Shown in pieces: positions 29,911 to 46,000 of a stretch of 64,000 bases of DNA. The notes beneath the pieces were generated by a model that was not told the origin of the DNA, ran no database searches, and worked only from the letters and a program-made list of their open reading frames with translations. The translations under genes were made by a program, and so were the position numbers. How positions within the stretch are numbered: the stretch's first letter is position 1; each line of letters starts with the position of its first letter. The stretch is from Prorocentrum cordatum (Eukaryota), in assembly GCA_963575745.1 (NCBI GenBank), contig CAUYUJ010000002.1:496001-560000 (forward strand), read 5' to 3'.

Positions 29911-30062
29911 TCATCCGAGGCGTGCGGGCCCGAACGGCCGCCTGAGCGGCTCTCCGGCGGACAGTGCCGTAGGCGTTCTTCCTCCTCCTCCATCCTCATC
30001 CTCCTCGACCTCCTCCTCCTCCTCCTCCTCCTCATCCTCCTCCCCCTGCTCCTCCCTCCTCC

Positions 30063-30084
30063 TCCGTAGCCATTTTGGCTCAAG
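30063..30084 (+). other. Dinoflagellate spliced-leader (DinoSL) sequence, perfect 22-mer, followed by degenerate relics (30085-30120)
   Basis: TCCGTAGCCATTTTGGCTCAAG matches DCCGTAGCCATTTTGGCTCAAG; it is followed by tccgtagcggttgtgctcag and cattttggcg. Confidence 0.95.
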
Positions 30085-30239
30085 TCCGTAGCGGTTGTGC
30101 TCAGACTTGGCATTTTGGCGTGGGGGGAGGACGGCCCCCGACTGCTCCGAGCCTCCTCCTCAGCCTGCCCAGGCTGGAGGCTCCTCGCTTTCACGTGCGC
30201 ATTCTTTCCGAGGTGTGAAGCCTCGAATGACCAAACAGC

Positions 30240-31428
30240 ATGCCCCTTGGGTTTCTTTCTCGTGCTGCTGCTGCCGACGATTGGAAGCTGGCCGCGGCAA
30301 AGCCAGAGTTCCTCAAGCGTTGGACATGCGGATGTGGTAAGAACAGGCGGACGGCAAACAACTGCTTCCAGTGCGGTGCGTCCCTTCACGCCCGAGAGCC
30401 CTGGGTCGAGCAGCCCGTGGCCCCCGCCGAGCCTCGGGCAGCTCCGAAGCCAGGGCGCTGGCGCAACGGGCGAGCGGCAGCGGATGGAAAGGCGGGGAGC
30501 AAGGGAGCTCCCAAGGGGGGCAGGGCCGAGGGAGGCAAGGGTCAGCTCGGGGAGACGCGTCAACCTTTTCGCTCTGGCCCCCAGTTTGCCAATGGCTCAG
30601 ACCCCATGGCTTTCAATGTCAAGCAGATGCAGCGGGGGGAGGTCCAGCAGCTGGCAGCCTTGGCCGAGAAGCACGGCCTCGCGATGGTCTCCAGCCAGTG
30701 CAAGCTCCGCCTCATGGAGCTGGACCTTTTGGCTGCTGCGCCTGTCGCGCCCCCGCCCGAGAAGCAATTGTATTGGTTGGTTGAAGAGAGGGACGCCCAT
30801 GTCCAGCGGATGGAGAAAGAACTCGACCTGGTCGACAAGTGGGAGAAGAGTATGGCTCGGCAGAGGCAGAAGATCCAGGACCTCAGCGACGAGCTGGACT
30901 CCTACGACGCCCAGATTGCAGGGCTCAAACTCAGGCTCTCCGAGCACTCCCAGCGGGCAGCCGACGCCGAGGCTGCCGCGTCTGTTGGTGCGCGGTTGGA
31001 CTCGCTCCTGGACGGCCCTTTCAGGATCGACTGTGGGAACCTGTTCGAGGTGGGTGACGAGGAGTACGAGCTGTCAGACAGACAAGCAGGAGCTCCAGCA
31101 GCGCAAGCAGCAGCTGGAGTCGCTCACTGCAGACAATGCAAAATCGCTCTTCGCACAGGCCAAGGAGCACTTCGAGAAACTCAAAGCCGAGCACGCCGCC
31201 TTGTGCTCCAGGCTCACGAAGAAGCGCAAGACCGAGGATGGCACCGCGAGCGGGTCGGCAGGCGAGGCAGCGGCTGCCTCTGGCCCTGGGCAGGGCGCCC
31301 AGGCGCCACGGTCGCAGGCGGACCTCTCGGCGGAGATGCCCACAGCGGTGCCTGATGTTCGGACTCGTGCTCGGGACAGCAAGGCCAAGTTGGAGCAGGC
31401 AGGGGCCCCCGCAGGCGCCGTTGCCTGA
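30240..31428 (+). pseudogene. ORF1 (gag-like) of the SL-capped LINE, with one frameshift near 31080
   Basis: N-terminal W.C.C...C..C finger, KG-rich linker and a long coiled coil that continues in the frame of ORF 30097..31428. Confidence 0.65.
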
Positions 31429-34009
31429 GAGGGCCCAGCCCTACCGTTCTGAGGGCGCTCAGCCAGTGCGGCCGAGAGGCTGCCCGCCGCTGGACGTGTT
31501 GCCAACGTCCTGGGCTTCGAATCCTGAAGGCCAAGATTGGCCAGGCCTGAAGTTCCCTGTCGCAGCTGCAGCTGGCCTAGACGAGCGGTTGCTGGCTGGC
31601 CGTCGGCACCTACAGCCAGTGCCTGCGGCCATGGAGAGGCCGCCGAAGGGCGCGGGGGCAGGGGATTCAGCCCCCGACCGTCGAGCCCCCGCGCCCGCAT
31701 GGACAACCCGTTCGGCTACCCGCTCCAAAGCCATTGGTACGAGTGGATCGTGGGCGCCTTCTGCTGCGGCTGCTGGGGCACAGGCCCCCATCGGGGCCAG
31801 CGGCGCCGCCGCCGCCGCGGAGACCCCAGCAGCCTGGGGGGCCGCCGCCGCCGCGCCTCTGGTACCTGAGGGGGCCCAGCCACATGAGCGACACGGAGGG
31901 GCAGAGGCCTCTCCCTCGGCCAGCGCGAGCGCCGCCGCCGCGGAGGCTCCAGCATCCCGTGGACCCGCCGCCGCCGCGCCGCTGGCCACTGGAGAGGCCC
32001 AGCCACGTGAGCGACATGGAGGCGCCCCAGAGGGGCTCATACGTCGTCACGCGGCCGGCCCCGATGGCACGCACTGCTCGCCTCCAGCCCCAGCGGCAAC
32101 TGAGGTTGAGGGCGCCGACCATCCGGGAGCCTCGACTGGCGAGAACGCGAGCCTGAGCACGAGAGACCCCGCAGGGGCAGGTTGTGACCCTCCCTTGCTG
32201 GGCGCCCTGTCCACGGGGAAGTCATCCGTTGCCGTGAGGAATGATGGTGGGAAGCTCTTGGCTCAGGCAGATATCGCGACTGGGGGCGCTGCTCAGCCAC
32301 CTTGCACTCAAGACAGGGAGGCCAAGGTCATGGGCACTGTCAACGACGACACGCTCACGCTGGTTAAGTACAGTGGCAACGCTTGTTCGACGGCTCAGGC
32401 GGTCATGGAGAGGATGCACCGCGAGGCGAAGCGTGATGATCACCACTTTTGCTTTCAGGAGACGCGCGTGCAGCTGGGGAGAGCGGCGCCCCCAACCTCG
32501 AGGGCAGGCAAGGCGGGCTTCACGATGCACGCTGCGGCGGCCGCGGTCACGGGTGAAGGGGCCCTGGAGCACTCAGGAGGAGCGGCCACGCGGTCGTGGG
32601 CCTCGGTCGGGGCCAGGCCCTTGGAGGACGATTTCCCCGAGAGAGTGAGGCTTCGCCTGATCGCCCAGCTGGTTTCAGTAACGGCGGACGTCCAGTTTGT
32701 GTTCGTCTCGGCCTACCTGGCGACGAACGAGGGCCTGGGCCCGACAAACCAGGACTTGCTGGCCCTCTCGGGCGAGCTCATTGATGCATTGGAGTGGCCT
32801 GCGGCGGTCGGCGGCGACTGGAACATTTCAGGGGGCGAGATTGTTGCCTCTGACTGGCCAGGCCGTCGGCACGCGCAGTCCGTTGAGCCCGAGGACGACA
32901 CTTGCAACGACAATGTCTTTGGCTTCCTTTTGAGTTGGCATTGTCTCCTCCCGCATGTTTTAAGAGTCCAGGCGCTTCTGAAATGGTCTAAAGCTGCACA
33001 AGTCTTTTTGATCAGCTCGCACCAGATCCCAGCAGGGGACGTGGCCAAGCTTTCAGGCCGTGCGCAGGGATGCCAGTTTCAACTGATGCCGCTCCGCACA
33101 GCCTGGGGTCGCGAGTTTGCGCGTCGCTCGACGGCCAGCGCGGCGAAGCGGCGCCAGCTCAGACGAGTGCTGACGCAGCTGCCAGGGCTGACCAACATAA
33201 AAGGGGGTCGGACGGGGGTGACGTGGGGGAGGCTCTGGAGGGTGCTCGATCAGGTCAGTCCCTGTTTGATGTCGGCGGAGGCCGAAGGGCTAAGCGCCAT
33301 CGCTGGTCGTGAACTGCTGGAAGGTCGGCAGGATCCCGACAGGCGCCCAGACCTCGTTGCCGCCACTGCCAAGGAAGTAGGTGCCAGGATAGCCAGTCAG
33401 GCGTCCCAGGCCAGGCAGGCCTGCCAGAATTTCGCTCAGTCTTCAGTGCTCAGGGGCGGGCGCATCGCTCACACTGGGGGCGAGGCCACGTTGTCTGGGC
33501 ATGTGGCTAGGGCCGTTAACGCTGTTGCTGCCGATGTGCAGGCACGCAAGCGGCCGATCTCGTGGGACAAGGCGGGAGCGCTGGCCAAGACCAGTGCACT
33601 TGCGTCTGCCTCGGCGGCAGAGCTGCCCCCACAGTTGGCTGCCAGCCGAGAGTCAGCTCACAGAGATTTGGGGGGGGAGGCGTCGGACCGTCGGGGGATC
33701 GACTGGGATCTACGATTCTGCTCGCCTGCCTGTACTGCAGCTCAGTTTTCGTTCGCGGCTAGGCGCGCCTCGGACGTCCGAGCGCCCGGCCTGCAGGACG
33801 ATGCATGGGTCATCGACGGGTGCTGGAGGCCCCATACTAGGTCTCCCAAAGGTGTGCAAACGATGCGAAGGAGCTCGGGGAACCATGTTTCACCGCTGCG
33901 ATGCCTGCCCCGCGCACGATGCCTTTCGATGGGGCAGCATGCCCACGGAGTTGACCAGGGCGGTCGACAGAATGAGGCAGATGCACGGCGCCCTCCAGCT
34001 GCTAGTCCT

Positions 34010-34480
34010 CCTAGAAGGAGGGTACGTCTTCACAGATGGGTCGGGGCTGGACCAGCACCACCCGCCCCGCAGAGTTGCAGGCTGGAGAGTGGCGCTACAT
34101 GACTCCGACAGGTGCTACGTTGGAGCGATTTTTAGAGCAGTGCCGCCTGACATCGGCATCTTGGGCGCGGCCAGAGTAGGCGAAGATTATTCCACGCTGA
34201 TGTGTGCCCAGAATGTTTTGGGTCGGCTCACTGGGCGAGCAGACTGCAAGAGTACACTAAGTTGCTGCCAGTCGACTAAATTAACAACTTCAGTGTACAA
34301 CCCGCGGGCCCACCTGTGGAGGCGGGGGCAGGTGCGCGAAGATATCCGTGCTCGGCCGATGGGGCACGTCAAGGCCCACACGGCGGCCGCCAGCGTAGAG
34401 AGGGGCCTGATTTCGCCTCCAGACAGAGACGGCAACAATGCTGCAGTAGGGGTCGCCATGTGTGGGGCGGCCTATGCCAG
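34010..34480 (+). pseudogene. RNase H domain
   Basis: YVFTDGSG...AGW...EDY...ADCK...HVKAH...GNNAA. The last catalytic Asp appears to be lost (GNNAAV). Confidence 0.85.
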
Positions 34481-35779
34481 TGCCGCCGTCTGTGACTTAG
34501 AGCTGGTAGAAGGGTGCCAGTCGTTTGCCAAGCTCGCGACCAAGTTTTCGGCCCAGCTTGAGGCCTCCATGGCCTCGTCTGGATTTCGGGACTTTGCCGG
34601 GGCCGCGTACCTCAGGAAAAGCGACCTGGGGCTGTGGCGCTACCGCGGTTTGTCGGCCCCTGAGGTCCTTGAGGCGGAGTCTTTCGGCGTGGTCCCCCCT
34701 CCTCCTGCGCCTCCTGCTTGTGCTGCTGCGTCCGTTCCTCCTGGGCCCGCCTCAGAAGACCCCGACTGGCATCTAGGCAAGGGTGTTCAACCCTGGAGGG
34801 TGGAGGGGCACGGCGTGGTGCGGAGCTCCGTGTCCCCGATCTTTTCTTTTTGCCCGTCGTGTTGGCTATTTGCGGCCACCCCGCTGCGGCGTGGTCTTGC
34901 AGGTGTCTGCAAGGGGCCCATGAAGCTCTCGGGTGGGTCAGCGTGCACTGTCCGTATGAGGTTGAAAGGCGGTTTTCATCCTGCGGGGCACCCTCTCGTG
35001 GCGCTCGGGCCCTCGGAGGCCCCGCTCGTGGTGACCAGGGGCCGTTGCTCCTGGCGTTTCGGGGAGGCCCCTGGAGGGGCGGCCGCGGCTCCAAGTGCGC
35101 CGAAGGTGGCCCCTTTTTCGAAGCAGGCCGGGGCCTCACGCCTCGGCTTGGATTCCGTGCTGCTCGCTTTTGGTTTCGGCTCCAGAGTGGAGAGGCATGA
35201 GCGTGGTCGGCAGAGGCTCCTCGATCGAGCCCCTGCCCACGCCAGGGCGGCGAGTGCCGCGGACCCAGAGGCTGAAGTGTAAGTTTCTGGGGGGTGGGGG
35301 GCCCTGTCGGCTGGGCCCGCCCGAGGTGGGTCACAGCCTCGGGCGGGAACAAAAAGGTCTCGTCTGAAGGGCGCCCCCACCCCAATTTTCCTCTCTTCCC
35401 CCTGACCCCCCCCCCTCTAAGGGCGGTGAACCTCCCTCCTCCTCCCTCCTCCCTTCCCCTCCTCCCCTCCTTCTCCTCCTCCTCCTCCCCCTCCTCCTTC
35501 TCCTCCTCCTCCTCATTATCCTCCCCCTCCTTCCCCTTTTCCGTCCCCTCCTCCGCATCCCCTTTTCCTCCTCCTCCCTCCTCCTCGTCCCTCCGCCTCA
35601 TCCGCCTCCTCATTAGTCTTCTCCTCATCCGCCTCCTCCTTCTCCTCCCTTTCACTTACACTATATATGTGTGAGTGTTACATTATGAATGTATACACTA
35701 CTCTCCTCTCTCCCCCGAAGACGCCAGTGAGGCGTCCTGACCTCCTCCGCGCATTGTTTTCACACGCGTGATGCCGTTG

Positions 35780-36330
35780 AGTTGAACATTAATATGTGTT
35801 TGTCCAACTCGAACATTTCCAGTCTTTTCAGAATAGCGCTCCCGCTACAGCGCTGGCTCCATGTTCTCGCTCTCAGCCCTTCAATTCACGTACCCACTGC
35901 AGCGCTGACCTCATTTCATTGTCTGTTCTTCGAACTCGTGCTCCTGCTGGCTTCGGCTCGAAGCATCCAGTCCTTCCAAATCGTGCTCCCACTGCAGCGC
36001 GCTTGCCTCATGTCCGCTGTGCCGGTCCTTCGAAATCATGCTCCCGCTGCAGCCCTGATCTCATGTTACGTTTCCCGCTTTCCAAACCGTCCATTTGTAT
36101 TTCCCGTCCTGTGTCAGTTCTGCTATCACTCTGACCTTGTTGTCGAAACGAGTCGCGTCCTCGACGCGACGACGTCGGCTGTGGCCGTGTTCTATGCCAT
36201 GCTATGCCGTGCTATACCACGCATCGCGCACTCTTTCGGGATCATTGCCCTGCTCAACATCCGGCTGTCTGCGCATACAGAGAGGAGGTCCACGCAGTGG
36301 TGAAGGATGGGAGGGAGTGGTAGCTTGCCT
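35780..36330 (-). repeat. Dispersed repeat, inverted relative to the copy at 41412-41810; 5' fragment also at about 8430-8490
   Basis: Shared tcgggatcattgccctgctc, gctcccgctgcagcgctggc subrepeats and caagctaggtgc...ctgacatcc.acccctccctcccatcc. Confidence 0.75.
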
Positions 36331-39420: not shown

Positions 39421-42400
39421 GGTCGAGCCTGGCCGTCCGCAACGCCCACCCGCCGTGGGATCCTCGCCTCGGTCGCCGTCTTGGCCCGAGCCGCCGCCGC
39501 CGCCCGGACCGCCGGGCGCCGGCGCGCTGTGCAGGCGCCGTTCTTGCGCCGCGCTTCGGGCGCGATGTCCGGCTCAAGGCACCTCCACCTCCTCATAACG
39601 AGGGGCAGGAGGAGAAGGAGGAGGAGAAGGAGCACGGGGAGGGGGAGGAGGAGGAGGAGGAGGAGGAGGAGGAGGAGGAGGAGAAGGTGGACCAGGAGGA
39701 CGAGGAGGAGGAGGAGGAGGAGGACAAGGAGGAGATGGAGGATGAGATGGCGGGGCGTGCTCCTCGCCCTTGTCCTCGTCATCCTCCTTATCCTCCTAGT
39801 CGTCGTCCTGTGTTGTCCCCATCCTTCCCATCGTCGCCCTCGTCTTCGCCATCGCCCTCCTCGTCCTTTTTGCCATCCTCCGCATCCTCTGCGTCGTCCT
39901 CGTCGTCCTTGTCGTCCCCGTTACCCTGGTCGTCGCTCTCGCCCTCGCCCTCGTGGCCGCCCGCCCCCAAGCATTTGTCGTCGTTGTCGCCCGCGTTGTC
40001 GCCCTGTCTTCCTCGTCCCCGTCCTCCCCGATACCGACCTCGACCTCGTGCTGTTCCTCCCAGCCCCCCTCGTTCTCGTTTTCTTGTTTTACCGAAGCCT
40101 TCCTTTCAGCGCGTGACGGTCCCTCGCGTGCAGCTTGCCGCGAGAGGGACGCACCAGCAGGATAATGTTGTTGCTTCTTGAGGGGGCGATCATCTCGTCT
40201 TCATCCTTGACCTCGACGTCCTGTGCGTGCCTGATCCCAGGTCTCCTAAGATCTCGTGCCCTCCCTCCTCCGTCTCCGACCTCGTCCCCCATCGCCTCCT
40301 TCTGGCGGCCAACGTCGCTCTCCTCCTCGTGCTCGCCTCCGTCCTCCTCGCCTCCGTCCTCCGTGGCCTTCTCCTCGTGCGTTCCTCGCCCCTCGCCCGC
40401 GTCGTCCTCATCCTCCCAGGCTCGGGCAGCACAAGGTCTGGGGCGAGCCCGAGGTTCTGAGCTGCTACAGCTCCAGCGGCACTGGGACCCCCATCCCCGG
40501 CGGCCCGGGACCGCGGATCCCGGGGGAGGTGGAGGGAGGAGGAGGAGGAAGGGGGGAGGGAGGGAGGGAGGAGGAGGGAGGCGGGAGGGAGGAGGAGGAG
40601 GAGGAGGCGGAGGAGGAGGAGGAGGAGGCGGAGGAGGAGGAGGAGAAGGCATTCATCGGTTCCAGCCGAGGATCACCAACATGCAACGGCGTGATTACGA
40701 ACTGTCGGAGGCCCGCGCGGATGTTCCTCGGGTCGCTGTCTGGGCTCCCCCGTGGCCCTGGCGGCGCCTCCAGGGCCCCCCCTGGCGCCCTCTCCGCACC
40801 TCCAGGGGCGGGGGGGGGGGCCCAGGCCTGGCCCCAGAAGCCTGCACGGGCCTCGGCAGGGTTCTGTTTCCGCTGCCTGCCTTCTTCTGTCCAGGAGGGA
40901 GGGGATGGGAGGGGATCAGGAGAGTGTGATGGTCGGTATCGTTTAACCAATCCCCATCGCCATCCCCATCCCCTTCGAGACCCCCACCAAATCACCACCC
41001 CAGTTGGGGATACACCCCTCGAAACTCGAAGGGAACGGCATACGTATATCCCCATTTAGGGGGGTGAATCGGCCAGTGGGGCCCAGGCCACGCCGCCAGG
41101 GATGGGGATCGGATAAACGATGCTCAGATGGCGAGGAGGGGGTGGCGAGGCGAAGGAACGAACAGGAGGACGAGCGGGAAGGCGGGGACGAGAGGTGGGG
41201 TGCCCGAGTGGAAGGATGGAAGTACAGGTGGGGAGTGAGAGTGGTGACAACGGTCGGAATGGTAAGGAGGATGTTCATAAGGGAACGGGGAGGGGGAGGA
41301 GGAGGAGAAGGAAGAGGAGGAGGAAGGAGAAGAGGAGGAAAAGGGGAAGGAGGGGGAGAAGGGGTGAGGAAGGAGGAGGGGAGGGAGGGGGAGGAGGAGG
41401 GGGGGAGGGGGGAAGGCAAGCTAGGTGCGCTCGCGTCATATCTGACATCCTACCCCTCCCTCCCATCCCTTACCATGGCGTCGGATGTCGAGCAGGGCAA
41501 TGATCCCGAAAGGATACGCGATGCATTGTAGAGCACGGCATGGCATGGCGTAGAAGAGCACCGCAAAGCGTAGCATCAACCTGGCATTGCATTGCATGCC
41601 GTGGCATGGTACGGGAAATGACGCCAGCGCTGCAGCGGGAGCACGAGCCGGAACGAGCGGAAGCGCGGAAATGAGGCCAGCGCTGCAGCGGGAGCACGAT
41701 TCGGAACGAGCAGGGCCCGAAAATGAGGCCGGCGCCTCAGCGAGAGCAGCATTTTGGAAATATGCAGGCGAAAACCCAACTCCGGGGAATCCTGTGTGTA
41801 CAGTGTAAATAAAACAGTACGCGGGGGGGCTAACACTCTCAAGCCGTCATCAGGGGAAGAGGGAGAGTAGTATTCATATTGAGTAATTGTGGAGGCGAAG
41901 GGGGAGGGGACGGGGGGGAGGAGGGGAGGGAGGGAGGGAGGGAGGAGTAGGAGTTGGAGGAAGAGGCGGAGGAGGAGGAGGAGGAGGAGGAGGAGGTATA
42001 ATGAGGAGGAGGGCTCGAGGAGGGCGGGAGGGAGGGCGGGGTGGGGAGGGAGGGTGGGAGAGCGGGGGGAAGCACATGATGATCAGGAGGAGCAGCATGA
42101 TGAGCAGGCGTAGCTGTAAGAGCAGGCGAACCAGGGGGAGGAGGACGGTCAAGCGGAGTGGGACGAAGCACCACAACACCAGTAGGAGCGATATTGACAG
42201 CACAGGCCAACGCGTCTACAGGGGAAGGGGGAGGAAGGGGAGGAGGATGAGCAGGACGGGGAATAGGACAAGGAGGACTGAGGTAATGCAGAGGACCAGA
42301 AGCAGCAGGATCAGCAGCGGTGTAGCAGCATCAGCAGCAGCAGCAGCAGCAGCAGCCAGAGTAGTAATCTCTCCGAGTGTAATATACATGAGCACGAGAA

Positions 42401-43085: not shown

Positions 43086-46000
43086 AAGGAAGATGCTGAC
43101 GATGAGGAGGAAGATAATTGGGTGGAGGATGAGGATGGTACTGATGATGATGATGGTGAGGATACGGATGATGATGGTGATGTTGATGATGGAGATGGAG
43201 ATGTGGATGATGATGATGATGATGATGATGAGGATGATGAGGATGGGGGTGAGGATGATGATGATGATGATGACGCTGATGATGACGGTGATGATTATGG
43301 TGATGTTGATAAGGTTGCTGCTGATGCTGATGATGCTGCTGCTGATGCTGATGCTGATACTGATGATGATGTTGATGATCACGATGTTGGTGGTGATGCT
43401 GACGATGGTGATGTTGATGATGATGACGATGATGATGATGATGCTGATAATGATGCTGCTGCTGATGATTGTGGTGATGCAGAGGAGGAGGAGGAGGATC
43501 AGGATCTGGATCAGGATGATAATTCGGACCATGACATCATGACGACGACGTCGCCGACGACGATGATGATGCTGATGATGATGCTGATGATGATGATGTT
43601 GATGATGACGATTGTGCTGCTGCTGATGATGATGATGATGATGATAAACATAATGACGAGCAGGGGAGGGTGGAGTTCTTCGCCTGGGATCCGCCCTCCG
43701 GGCCGCCGGCCAGCGGCGGACAGGGCAGCAGCAAGAACGGTGGGACCAAGGATCCTTCCTCCTGGACCTCCTTGTCGTCCTCGTCCGCCTCGTCGTCCTT
43801 CTTTCTCGTCGTCCTTCTCCTCTTCCCTTCCCTCCTCCTGCCCCTCCTCCCCCATCCTCCTCCTGCCCCTCCTCCTCCTGCCCCTCTTCCTCCTCCCCCT
43901 CCTCCTCCTCCTCCTCCTCCTCCTCCTCCTCCTCCTCCTCCTCCTCCTCCTCCTCCTCTTGGCTCCCTCTCCTCCTCGTCTTCCTCCCCGCCCCTTCCCT
44001 GCCGCCCTCCACGCCTTGCCTTGCCTCCCCGCCCCCTCTCCGCGAAGGAGCGCAGGTTCCCACAAGAGCTCCAGCAGTACCTGCGGTCCAGCGTGGCCAA
44101 GGCCCGCCCCGGGGGGGAGGTCCCCCTCGCCGCCTCGGCACCGCGCGTCGCCTGGAGCGGCGCGTCTCGCGAGCGTTGCCCTCTGCACCGCCGAGCCCAG
44201 ACAGACCGGCGTCGCGAACAAATCGAGGCGGTTCTTGCTTGATCATGGTGTTCGGCCTCGCGGGGGCCCTTCCGGGCCTCGGGGCCGTGGACAAAAATGG
44301 CTCGGAGGGGAGGAGCGGAGGGGGGTTGCAGGAGGAGAGGAGCAGGAGTAGGAGCAGGAGCAGTAGCAGGAGCTTCATCATGGTGTTCGGCCTCGCGGGG
44401 GCCCTTCCCGGCCTCGGGGCCGTGAACACGAGTTTTGGAGTCCCGAAGCGGTGCGGTGACACACCGTGCGGTGACCTCGGAACCCCAAGAGACCTCACCG
44501 CACGGTCCGTCGCCGCACGGTTTTGGGACCTCGGAGGCCCCAGTCGCCCGTGATGTCCTCGGAGAACGACCCGAGTCCCAAAACCGTGCGGTGACCCCGA
44601 ATCCCCACCGACTCACCGCAGGGTGTAGTTCACCCCCCAGTTTGGGGGCCCCCGAAGAATGGCTCGGGATGAGGAACCGGTCCTGGGGGTGTGGTCGAGG
44701 GTCGACGGGTCGAGGGCCCGTGTCTCCAGGCCGCCCAGATGGGGTCGAAGGAGACGTGATGGGCCTGTTTTCCACCACCACCATAAGATGGAGGGGGAAG
44801 GAGGAGGAGGAGGAGGAGGACCCCCTCCCCCTCAAACCTATGGTGGTGGTGGAAAACAGGCTCATCAAGACGGGGTCGAAAGAACGCGCCGCATCGCCGA
44901 TGCATGGCCGATGCGGCTCGATGTGGAGCCCGATATTCTCCACGTCGACGTCGCCGATGCATTGCCGACGCATCGGCGATACATCGTCGATGTGGTGCAT
45001 TCCTCCGGCCCCAGTTGCTCGATCCCATCTAACCGCTACAGGTCCGTAGCGTTGGTCCCCCCAGAATCTATCGCCGGTGAATAGGACTGGTCCTAAAACC
45101 TCCTCTTCCTCCTTGTCTTCTTCTTTCCTCCTCCATCCTTGTTGTTGCGCGGCGGGTGCCGCGTTAAAAAACCAGAAGTTACCCCCCATTTGTGGGTCCC
45201 CAATAATTCCATAAGGCCGCCGAGAAAGTCATTCGCTACCCCCCCATAGGGGGGGTCGAAAGACCTTTCAGGGTTAGGACGCCTTTATCGATGATCCTCA
45301 GGACATGGGCTAGCCCAATGTGCGTGCGTGCGTGTGTGTGTGTGTGTGTGTTGCCCAGTTCAGCTCTCCACCGACAGCACGACGCCTGCGCAGGCCTCCA
45401 GAGCCCGTCGCGGGAGGAGTCGTTACGATCATTCCCTCCGCCTTTCTCTTGAGCATCATTTCGCGCGCCGTTGCGCACGTTTGGCTCAAGCTGTTGTGAG
45501 GATACAGTCGGGCCGCTGAAGAAGGAACCCTTTTCGTTGGGGAGGGGTTCAGTGTTCCTTAATCGTCTTCGATTTGTTCTTACGTTTCCTTGGGAAGTTC
45601 AACGTATGGGAAAAAGGTGCCTCGTTCCTTTTTTAGGGTTCCTTATGCTAGCATGTAGGCTGTAAGTTGATCGGGCGTGGCCGCGCCTGGGCAAGAAAAG
45701 ATAAGCTCGTCATCATCAGCGTGCATGCATCACATACGTTCTTACTTTGCTTACCGGACAGTCATCGCCATGTCGCAAAATATCGTCAAGGAGCCATCCA
45801 TCGACAAGATCCCCGTGAAGAGATCCCATGAGTTAGGAGAGGAGAGCAAGGATCGCGCTCGATCGTCGGATAATGCTAACTACCTGACGAAGTATTGGGA
45901 TAGAGGAGGGGGAGAGAAGGGGTGCCACAAGCTCCCCAGCCCACCGCAACTCCTCTTCCTCCACCTCCTCATGCCGGGTAGGGTCGAGTGTGTTGTGCAG

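Follow-up and report, generated by a model that had tools for sequence, protein, structure and literature searches.

We analyzed a window of 64,000 nucleotides (nt) from Prorocentrum cordatum (assembly GCA_963575745.1, contig CAUYUJ010000002.1, positions 496,001 to 560,000 of the forward strand; all coordinates below are those of the window) in which a dinoflagellate spliced leader (DinoSL, or SL) heads a sequence derived from a long interspersed nuclear element (LINE). Our main finding is that the unit extending from 30063 to about 35430 is probably a DinoSL-tagged retrocopy of a LINE-derived (non-long terminal repeat, non-LTR) RNA, which was trans-spliced and then reverse-transcribed to its 5' end. 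As expected of a retrocopy, a DinoSL is present in genomic DNA at the 5' edge of the unit, with no SL intron behind it.

The outermost leader, SL1, is a perfect 22-nt DinoSL (TCCGTAGCCATTTTGGCTCAAG) at 30063-30084 (+), recognized by direct reading of the segment 29700-30900. A preliminary description of the stretch had placed such a leader right after a (TCC)n tract, and this is borne out, the site being the only one of its kind in 64 kb. Searching both strands of the window with the 21-nt core of the DinoSL (up to 3 mismatches) returned one site for 0.01 expected, and the 15-nt 3' part of the leader (up to 2 mismatches) also gave a single site in the window, for 0.14 expected. The bases directly 3' of SL1 are TCCG, and a GT donor is absent there.

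SL1 is abutted by SL2 (30085-30104 (+); TCCGTAGCGGTTGTGCTCAG), a decayed full-length leader at edit distance 5 from the DinoSL, which retains 17 of the 22 leader positions and has two 1-nt deletions. On both strands of the window, four sites lie within edit distance 5 of the leader, namely SL1, SL2, 45469-45490 (+) and 44309-44288 (-), whereas six simulated sequences contained 0, 0, 1, 0, 0 and 1 such sites; the position of SL2, abutting SL1, is therefore not due to chance. At edit distance 6, chance level is reached, with 12 sites in the window against 5 to 12 in the simulations. A third, SL3-like piece (30105-30125 (+)) contains the exact 9-mer CATTTTGGC at 30111-30119, which occurs three times in the window for 0.60 expected, one of the copies being supplied by SL1. 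Identity to the leader drops inward, from 22/22 in SL1 to 17/22 in SL2 and about 13/21, by eye, in SL3. Of the degenerate leader-like pieces that had been described behind SL1, SL2 is thus confirmed as non-random, while the third holds for its exact 9-mer and not as a whole leader, for which its likeness is at chance level. The order of the stack, with the freshest leader outermost and older ones inside, is what reverse transcription predicts, and it supports the earlier proposal that a trans-spliced RNA was copied up to its 5' end.

The relics behind SL1 are full-length. The canonical truncated form, cut at an internal AG (CCATTTTGGCTCAAG), is not seen here: the window sequence behind SL1 is at edit distance 9 from this truncated relic and at 5 from the full leader. 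The sequence CGTAGGCGTTC, which occurs twice upstream (at about 29865 and 29940), was considered as a source of further relics and rejected, its leader likeness being limited to CCGTAG. An Rfam scan of the window detected no RNA family anywhere. The two other decayed leaders of the window, at 45469-45490 (+) and 44309-44288 (-), are each at edit distance 5, a class represented by 0 to 1 site per simulated sequence; the latter lies behind a CT/TCC-rich tract (87% pyrimidine) and has an ATG about 40 nt downstream. No recognizable coding sequence was found behind either of them.

The LINE nature of the unit rests on its second open reading frame (ORF), ORF2; ORF1 has no detectable relatives. An exhaustive phmmer search with 32390-34099 as the query yielded 88 related proteins at E <= 0.001, eight of them at E <= 1e-10, and tblastn maps all 88 to one place, 32297-33694. 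Pfam was checked in 23 of the 88: Exo_endo_phos (PF03372) is present in 13 of these 23 at E <= 0.001, and one of the 23, P0023 (1555 amino acids, aa), carries both PF03372 and the reverse transcriptase (RT) family RVT_1. The named relatives are two P. cordatum proteins, and the closest short fragments come from EukProt. Two of these fragments, P0002 and P0003 (53-92% identical to ORF2), bear the EukProt label of a prasinophyte green-alga culture, which seems at odds with the DinoSL and the P. cordatum relatives of the locus.

ORF2 starts with the ATG at 32330, and its first part (32330-32935 (+)) is an endonuclease of the apurinic/apyrimidinic (AP), or EEP, type. This membership follows from homology, that is, from the phmmer hits, from PF03372 in the relatives and from alignments; the copy itself has no Pfam match at E up to 5. 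The endonuclease retains the motifs QET and GDWN, carries Gly in place of a conserved Asp, and relative to P0005 lacks about 60 aa, among them a conserved PH. A conserved linker follows (32936-33472 (+)) and ends in GGRIAH; P0005 and P0009 can be aligned as far as this point (ORF2 residue 381), both then running into sequence that is missing here, and the alignments of P0008 and P0026 begin only at residue 383 (GGEAT). Residues 209-280 of P0009 correspond to residues 910-980 of P0023, just ahead of its RT, and P0026 corresponds to residues 1135-1417 of P0023, across the xVDD box; therefore, an RT core of about 300 aa, reaching to the xVDD box, has been deleted at 33470-33478 (+). This deletion junction recurs, at 92% identity, in the 127-aa fragment P0003, which comes from a different source, so the RT-deleted form is present in more than one copy.

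What is left of the RT is the part behind the DD box, a C-terminal remnant (RPISWDKAG region, 33476-33700 (+)) defined by tblastn and alignments; no RVT family was detected in 92 and 15 ORFs. Past a frameshift, the other frame contains a CCHC-type motif (CKRC..GT..H..C, 33855-33908 (+), by eye), also found in P0017 and P0023, and then an RNase H-like stretch (YVFTDGSG ... GHVKAH ... DGNNAA, 34005-34460 (+)). For the latter, the first match of an Atlas feature search (0.95, 192/256 features, PF00075) is a lead and not a proof, and neither Pfam nor the PDB sequences gave a match. The same order of endonuclease, linker, xVDD, CCHC and DGSA is seen in P0017, from P. cordatum. Several searches of this region were negative: Pfam for long ORFs located between 25 and 46 kb (92 ORFs, 4 ORFs, and 15 pieces at E up to 5), PDB sequences with either half of ORF2, homologs of the C-terminal half (33780-35279), and relatives of the endonuclease alignment among viral contigs. 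Having kept of its RT only what lies behind the DD box, the downstream unit is, judging from its sequence, a LINE-derived, non-autonomous copy of the AP-endonuclease type. Lacking the RT core and part of the endonuclease, this copy cannot copy itself and was probably moved in trans.

Other copies were found in DNA sequencing runs. Contigs of four runs, X1 to X4 (X2 being a marine metagenome), were aligned to 30030-35430 at a likeness of at least 80%. X1 contains 947 contigs at 80-100% identity, covering 30 of the 30 bins, with 146, 162, 359 and 280 contigs in the identity classes of 99% and above, 95-99%, 90-95% and below 90%, respectively. X2 gave 45 contigs over 18 of the 30 bins, X4 gave 24, nearly all at the TCC/leader end, and X3 gave none. 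By these alignments, the element is a family with multiple copies in one further data set at least. Together with the 88 protein relatives, this agrees with the earlier view of the downstream unit as LINE-derived and multi-copy. Self-comparison of the window revealed no second copy of the element, microsatellites apart.

Details of individual contigs come from the best-supported matches, beyond which there are 152 loose ends and 1002 pieces, and the statements of this paragraph hold among the matches listed. Small indels occur in X1 contigs at 30103, 30105 and 30110, and another copy is represented by a 257-nt X1 contig that reaches from SL3 into ORF1 (30113-30371), with 16 differences and 2 gaps. 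Where contigs depart from the alignment at 30126, a near-identical variant of the 5' untranslated region (UTR) follows, and those that depart at 30092-30096 (two in X1, two in X2) retain SL1 and TCCGTAGC, followed by what are, by eye, decayed versions of SL2 and SL3. In two X2 contigs the likeness stops exactly at 30063/30064, (GGA)n lying upstream; in X1, 46 loose ends belong to TCC contigs, which part from the window sequence at 30064/30065 without entering a leader. These contigs suggest that the leader stack is a feature of the family and not an accident of one locus, those diverging at 30092-30096 being possible members; a 5' boundary at 30063 in other copies is also indicated. The expectation that other copies would begin at the leader has partial support: contigs carry the relic region and two X2 contigs end their likeness at 30063/30064, but the diverged contigs have no downstream match. 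An analysis of the differences of the X1 to X4 contigs by codon position was dropped, as the differences listed are mostly private to the copy in the window.

A 5' UTR (30126-30239 (+)), spanned by the X1 contig from another copy, leads to an ORF1-like frame (30240-31425 (+)) in which a Cys-rich CxC...CxxC motif and a heptad-rich stretch can be recognized by eye. The frame is broken near 31080 by a 2-nt deletion; three of the X1 contigs listed have 2 extra bases at this place, with which reading would shift to the other open frame and stop at 31426. A LINE ORF1 had been announced behind the leaders: an ORF does start at 30240, but it has no Pfam family or relative, and the LINE assignment comes from ORF2. 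A search of JGI metagenome contigs with ORF1 returned no relative. The spacer between ORF1 and ORF2 contains a 123-bp tandem duplication (31795-32022 (+); self-comparison and Tandem Repeats Finder).

The element is bordered on both sides by pyrimidine tracts. Tandem Repeats Finder reports (TCC)28, of period 3, at 29980-30065, directly before SL1, and a degenerate (CCT)n of period 3 and 71.7 copies at 35435-35648 (+), directly after the element, whose 3' UTR (35283-35430 (+)) is reached by X1 contigs. The two flanking tracts share one polarity. The 30 nt before SL1 are 93% pyrimidine, and 30-nt windows with at least 90% pyrimidine make up 3.1% of the plus strand and 2.4% of the minus strand of the 64-kb window. 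The upstream microsatellite (29980-30062 (+)) could be an insertion target or a splice-acceptor tract, and the flanks may mean either that the element inserted into a microsatellite or that it has a microsatellite tail, two readings that both fit. Tract and leader do not adjoin at this LINE alone: they also do so at the 44309-44288 (-) relic and at X4 junctions between pyrimidine tract and leader that lead into unrelated sequence. The window as a whole is repeat-rich and gene-poor, at about 60% G+C, with about 70 pyrimidine or purine tracts of at least 30 nt and no Pfam-recognizable gene in 131 and 92 long ORFs over 1-64000. Downstream of the element, 35827-36263 and 41482-41759 form short inverted repeats (73-88% identity, 5.5 kb apart).

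To place this leader among others, metagenome contigs were scanned with the 21-nt DinoSL core, which gave at least 126 loci; 130 distinct sites with at least 30 nt downstream were classed, and the counts that follow hold among the matches listed. Thirty-five of the 130 sites resemble SL RNA genes (leader, GT, intron), and all 35 continue with an intron of the GTA...GCAGGCCTTTT type. That the window does not contain an SL RNA gene, as already stated in the preliminary description, is supported by this comparison, no GT intron being present behind SL1. A canonical truncated relic is present at 15 of the 130 sites and 79 are without a relic; a single one (L025) has a full-length second leader as in the window. 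At L025, the second leader, behind a perfect one, is decayed, and 1.9 kb of downstream sequence contains long ORFs without a Pfam family. No relative of the endonuclease was found in the 126 loci, and in one AT-rich contig a leader is followed, 2.2 kb on, by an EEP domain.

A microsatellite directly precedes the leader at 6 of 108 non-gene sites, a set defined by a strict rule that still contains some SL+GT sites, against 21 of 5000 random background 25-mers. The sites concerned (L005, L019, L054, L059, L096 and L116, and also L066 and L070) have a DinoSL behind ACACC, GGGT, ATC, GT, AT, CT or CA repeats, and microsatellite adjacency may be a general property of the integration of leader-bearing cDNAs. 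Two other kinds of arrangement were encountered. AT-rich contigs of 12-118 kb (L002, L017, L018, L047, L061-L063) carry perfect DinoSLs directly behind an AT-rich, TTTTTA-type sequence and before ORFs, one of them with three leaders 687-1200 bp apart; among the nearby ORFs are a DNA polymerase beta-like one, a RecQ helicase, an FtsJ methyltransferase and an EEP nuclease. In appearance, these contigs come from a large virus, or from an AT-rich genome, whose genes are tagged with leaders. In L083, three complete DinoSLs recur every 50 nt, with an identical 29-nt spacer behind each, in a tandem array; they are not SL RNA genes.

We propose that a LINE-derived RNA gained a fresh DinoSL by trans-splicing and that reverse transcription then reached the 5' end of this RNA, so that SL1 would be perfect and mark the 5' boundary. 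SL2 and SL3 would be older leaders that were already part of the 5' UTR of the family, inherited by the copies and decaying with them. SL1 and SL2 are not separated by a 15-nt truncated relic, so the last acceptor would have been an AG directly before SL2; likewise, since the relics are full-length, the usual internal AG would not have served as acceptor. For this role, the most economical choice is the AG that ends a resident leader (30083-30084 here), at which the first leader would be replaced in each round. Renewal of this kind would keep SL1 perfect while SL2 and SL3 decay, and would not lengthen the stack; the structure also predicts where the next leader joins. For a full-length SL2 to be retained in the first place, an acceptor at the very border of the older leader would have been needed. 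This model departs from the earlier idea that stacked relics record successive rounds, as full-length relics need a non-canonical acceptor and splicing at the terminal AG would replace a leader and not add to the stack. The (TCC)n tract and the leader AGs would together make a usable 3' splice site for read-through transcripts. As for its mobility, this copy most likely owes its mobilization to competent relatives acting in trans, along the path that also gives rise to DinoSL-tagged retrogenes, because RT and a complete endonuclease are missing from it.

Several points weigh against a retrocopy of LINE-derived RNA. Full-length relics are unusual, the 16 relic-bearing metagenome sites listed comprising 15 truncated ones and 1 full-length one. 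Among the matches listed, no RT was found behind any of the 43 non-gene SL sites with at least 1.2 kb downstream (92 ORFs), a weak test for LINEs, since an ORF2 beginning 2.3 kb downstream would lie beyond the end of most contigs. No poly(A) remnant is present, and no A-run precedes 35430. The target-site duplication that had been anticipated at the SL boundary is not recognizable either, (TCC)n on both flanks hiding any such duplication. No second complete 5' end was recovered with ORF1 as a query against metagenome contigs or with the endonuclease alignment against viral contigs, and the listed contigs that diverge after 30092-30096 have no match to the downstream element at 80% or more, so the stack could head other sequences. 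ORF1 is an orphan, with no Pfam family, no homolog among proteins of similar or shorter length, and no Atlas match. Finally, the evidence consists of DNA sequence, all four runs being DNA.

It is conceivable that the family goes further and lives by trans-splicing. Promoterless copies would be excised from read-through RNA by splicing at the resident leader's AG, re-capped with a new leader, translated and recopied, and both the stack and the pyrimidine tract would be functional. We regard this as possible but rather doubtful. The renewal of SL1 beside decaying SL2 and SL3 speaks for it, the AG at 30083-30084 being an acceptor that would regenerate the structure seen; so do the 83 nt of (TCC)n that precede the leader AGs, the presence of the stack in several diverged X1 and X2 variants among the matches listed, and the enrichment of 'RNA-dependent DNA replication' among DinoSL-tagged retrogenes, as given in a passage of Song et al. 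2017 (PMC5585692). On the other side, the copy is dead, with its RT core and the end of its endonuclease deleted and its frame broken; Pfam recognizes no upstream gene among the window ORFs that could provide read-through; and, in an organism that trans-splices its nuclear mRNAs generally, a LINE RNA would acquire a leader without being specially adapted to it. The support is, here again, drawn from DNA. A promoter-independent cycle would nevertheless be plausible, in that it is compatible with the structure. The fuller form of the proposal, a LINE family without a promoter of its own, carrying a heritable full-length leader stack as its 5' UTR behind polypyrimidine microsatellites, with trans-splicing at the terminal AG renewing the first leader and RT-less members riding along, is one that we put forward only tentatively.

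We consider it very improbable that the stack is part of a different short retrocopy, or a module common to many transcripts, which the LINE-derived sequence merely adjoins. A k-mer depth of 112-149 at 30103-30110, against 13-15 in the first ORF1 bins, would agree with such a separate origin, as would the several listed contigs that have SL1 and the start of SL2 and nothing further downstream. However, the X1 contig of another copy runs unbroken from SL3 (30113) to ORF1 (30371), contigs diverging at 30126 go on into the near-identical 5' UTR variant, and the diverging contigs keep SL2/SL3-like sequence, as expected for subfamilies falling under the 80% threshold. The complete leader at the 5' junction of a non-LTR element also recalls SLACS, CZAR, CRE and NeSL, LINEs of trypanosomatids and nematodes that insert specifically into SL RNA genes. 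That the locus is an SL RNA gene or pseudogene, or an SL RNA gene hit by such a LINE, is nonetheless hardly credible: SL1 has no GT donor or intron behind it, no SL intron follows the element, (TCC)n lies on both flanks, the endonuclease is of the AP (EEP) type, and the first base of the leader is T here and A at all 17 strictly defined SL RNA gene-like sites among the matches listed. A DinoSL-tagged retrocopy of a LINE-derived RNA remains, for us, the likely explanation.

DinoSL relics are a standard marker of retroposition in dinoflagellates, in which LINEs are presumed to be the source of the enzyme, direct links being scarce. At this locus, it would be a LINE-derived RNA itself that underwent trans-splicing and retroposition, an internally deleted RT-less derivative appears to multiply, and leader stacks can be full-length. 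If trans-splicing indeed replaces the LINE promoter, this would help to explain the very high loads of retroelements and retrogenes in dinoflagellate genomes, and would contrast with the trypanosomatid LINEs, which keep an internal promoter.

LINEs that end in microsatellites, or insert into them, exist. The element of the window resembles them in having the same microsatellite, in the same polarity, on both sides. Tracts of pyrimidines occupy about 3% of either strand of the window, and (TCC)n may be here a target, a tail or a coincidence. LINEs specific for SL genes (SLACS, CZAR, NeSL) have SL gene sequence on both sides, whereas the 3' flank here is (CCT)n without an SL intron. A close likeness in the coding part is to AP-endonuclease (EEP) non-LTR elements of P. 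cordatum itself (CAK0801439, CAK0889243), with 27-31% identity in the endonuclease and the same order of endonuclease, linker, RT tail, CCHC and RNase H-like part; unlike these, the window copy is without the RT core and the end of the endonuclease, its ORF1 has no relatives, and its 5' end carries the leader stack. The L1Tc/ingi LINEs of trypanosomatids also live in genomes with SL trans-spliced mRNAs, but in the passages available from PMC1874656 and PMC8190864 they have their own Pr77 internal promoter and unspliced transcripts, in contrast to the host leader that forms the 5' end here.

In the main texts of the full-text literature, we found no LINE with a DinoSL 5' end and no full-length leader stacks; supplements may list such genes. 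Truncated relic leaders, the recycling of retrogenes and LINEs as the presumed RT source appear in excerpts of PMC3229502, PMC12014239, PMC5585692, PMC3942190, PMC7245778, PMC10235124, PMC11453091, PMC8045281 and PMC7789003. DinoSL-tagged retrogenes, or recycled cDNAs, go back to Slamovits and Keeling 2008, as cited in parts of PMC3229502, PMC7245778 and PMC12014239, and to Song et al. 2017 (PMC5585692), whose gene ontology (GO) enrichment, as excerpted, comes nearest to a LINE with a DinoSL 5' end and partly anticipates leader-tagged retroelement genes. These retrogenes are a close known parallel of the locus. They differ from it in that the cargo here is LINE-derived and not a host gene, the relics are full-length and not truncated after nt 7, and no poly(A) remnant is visible; they share with it a leader copied into genomic DNA at the 5' end of the unit, older relics behind that leader, and a conservation that decays inward.

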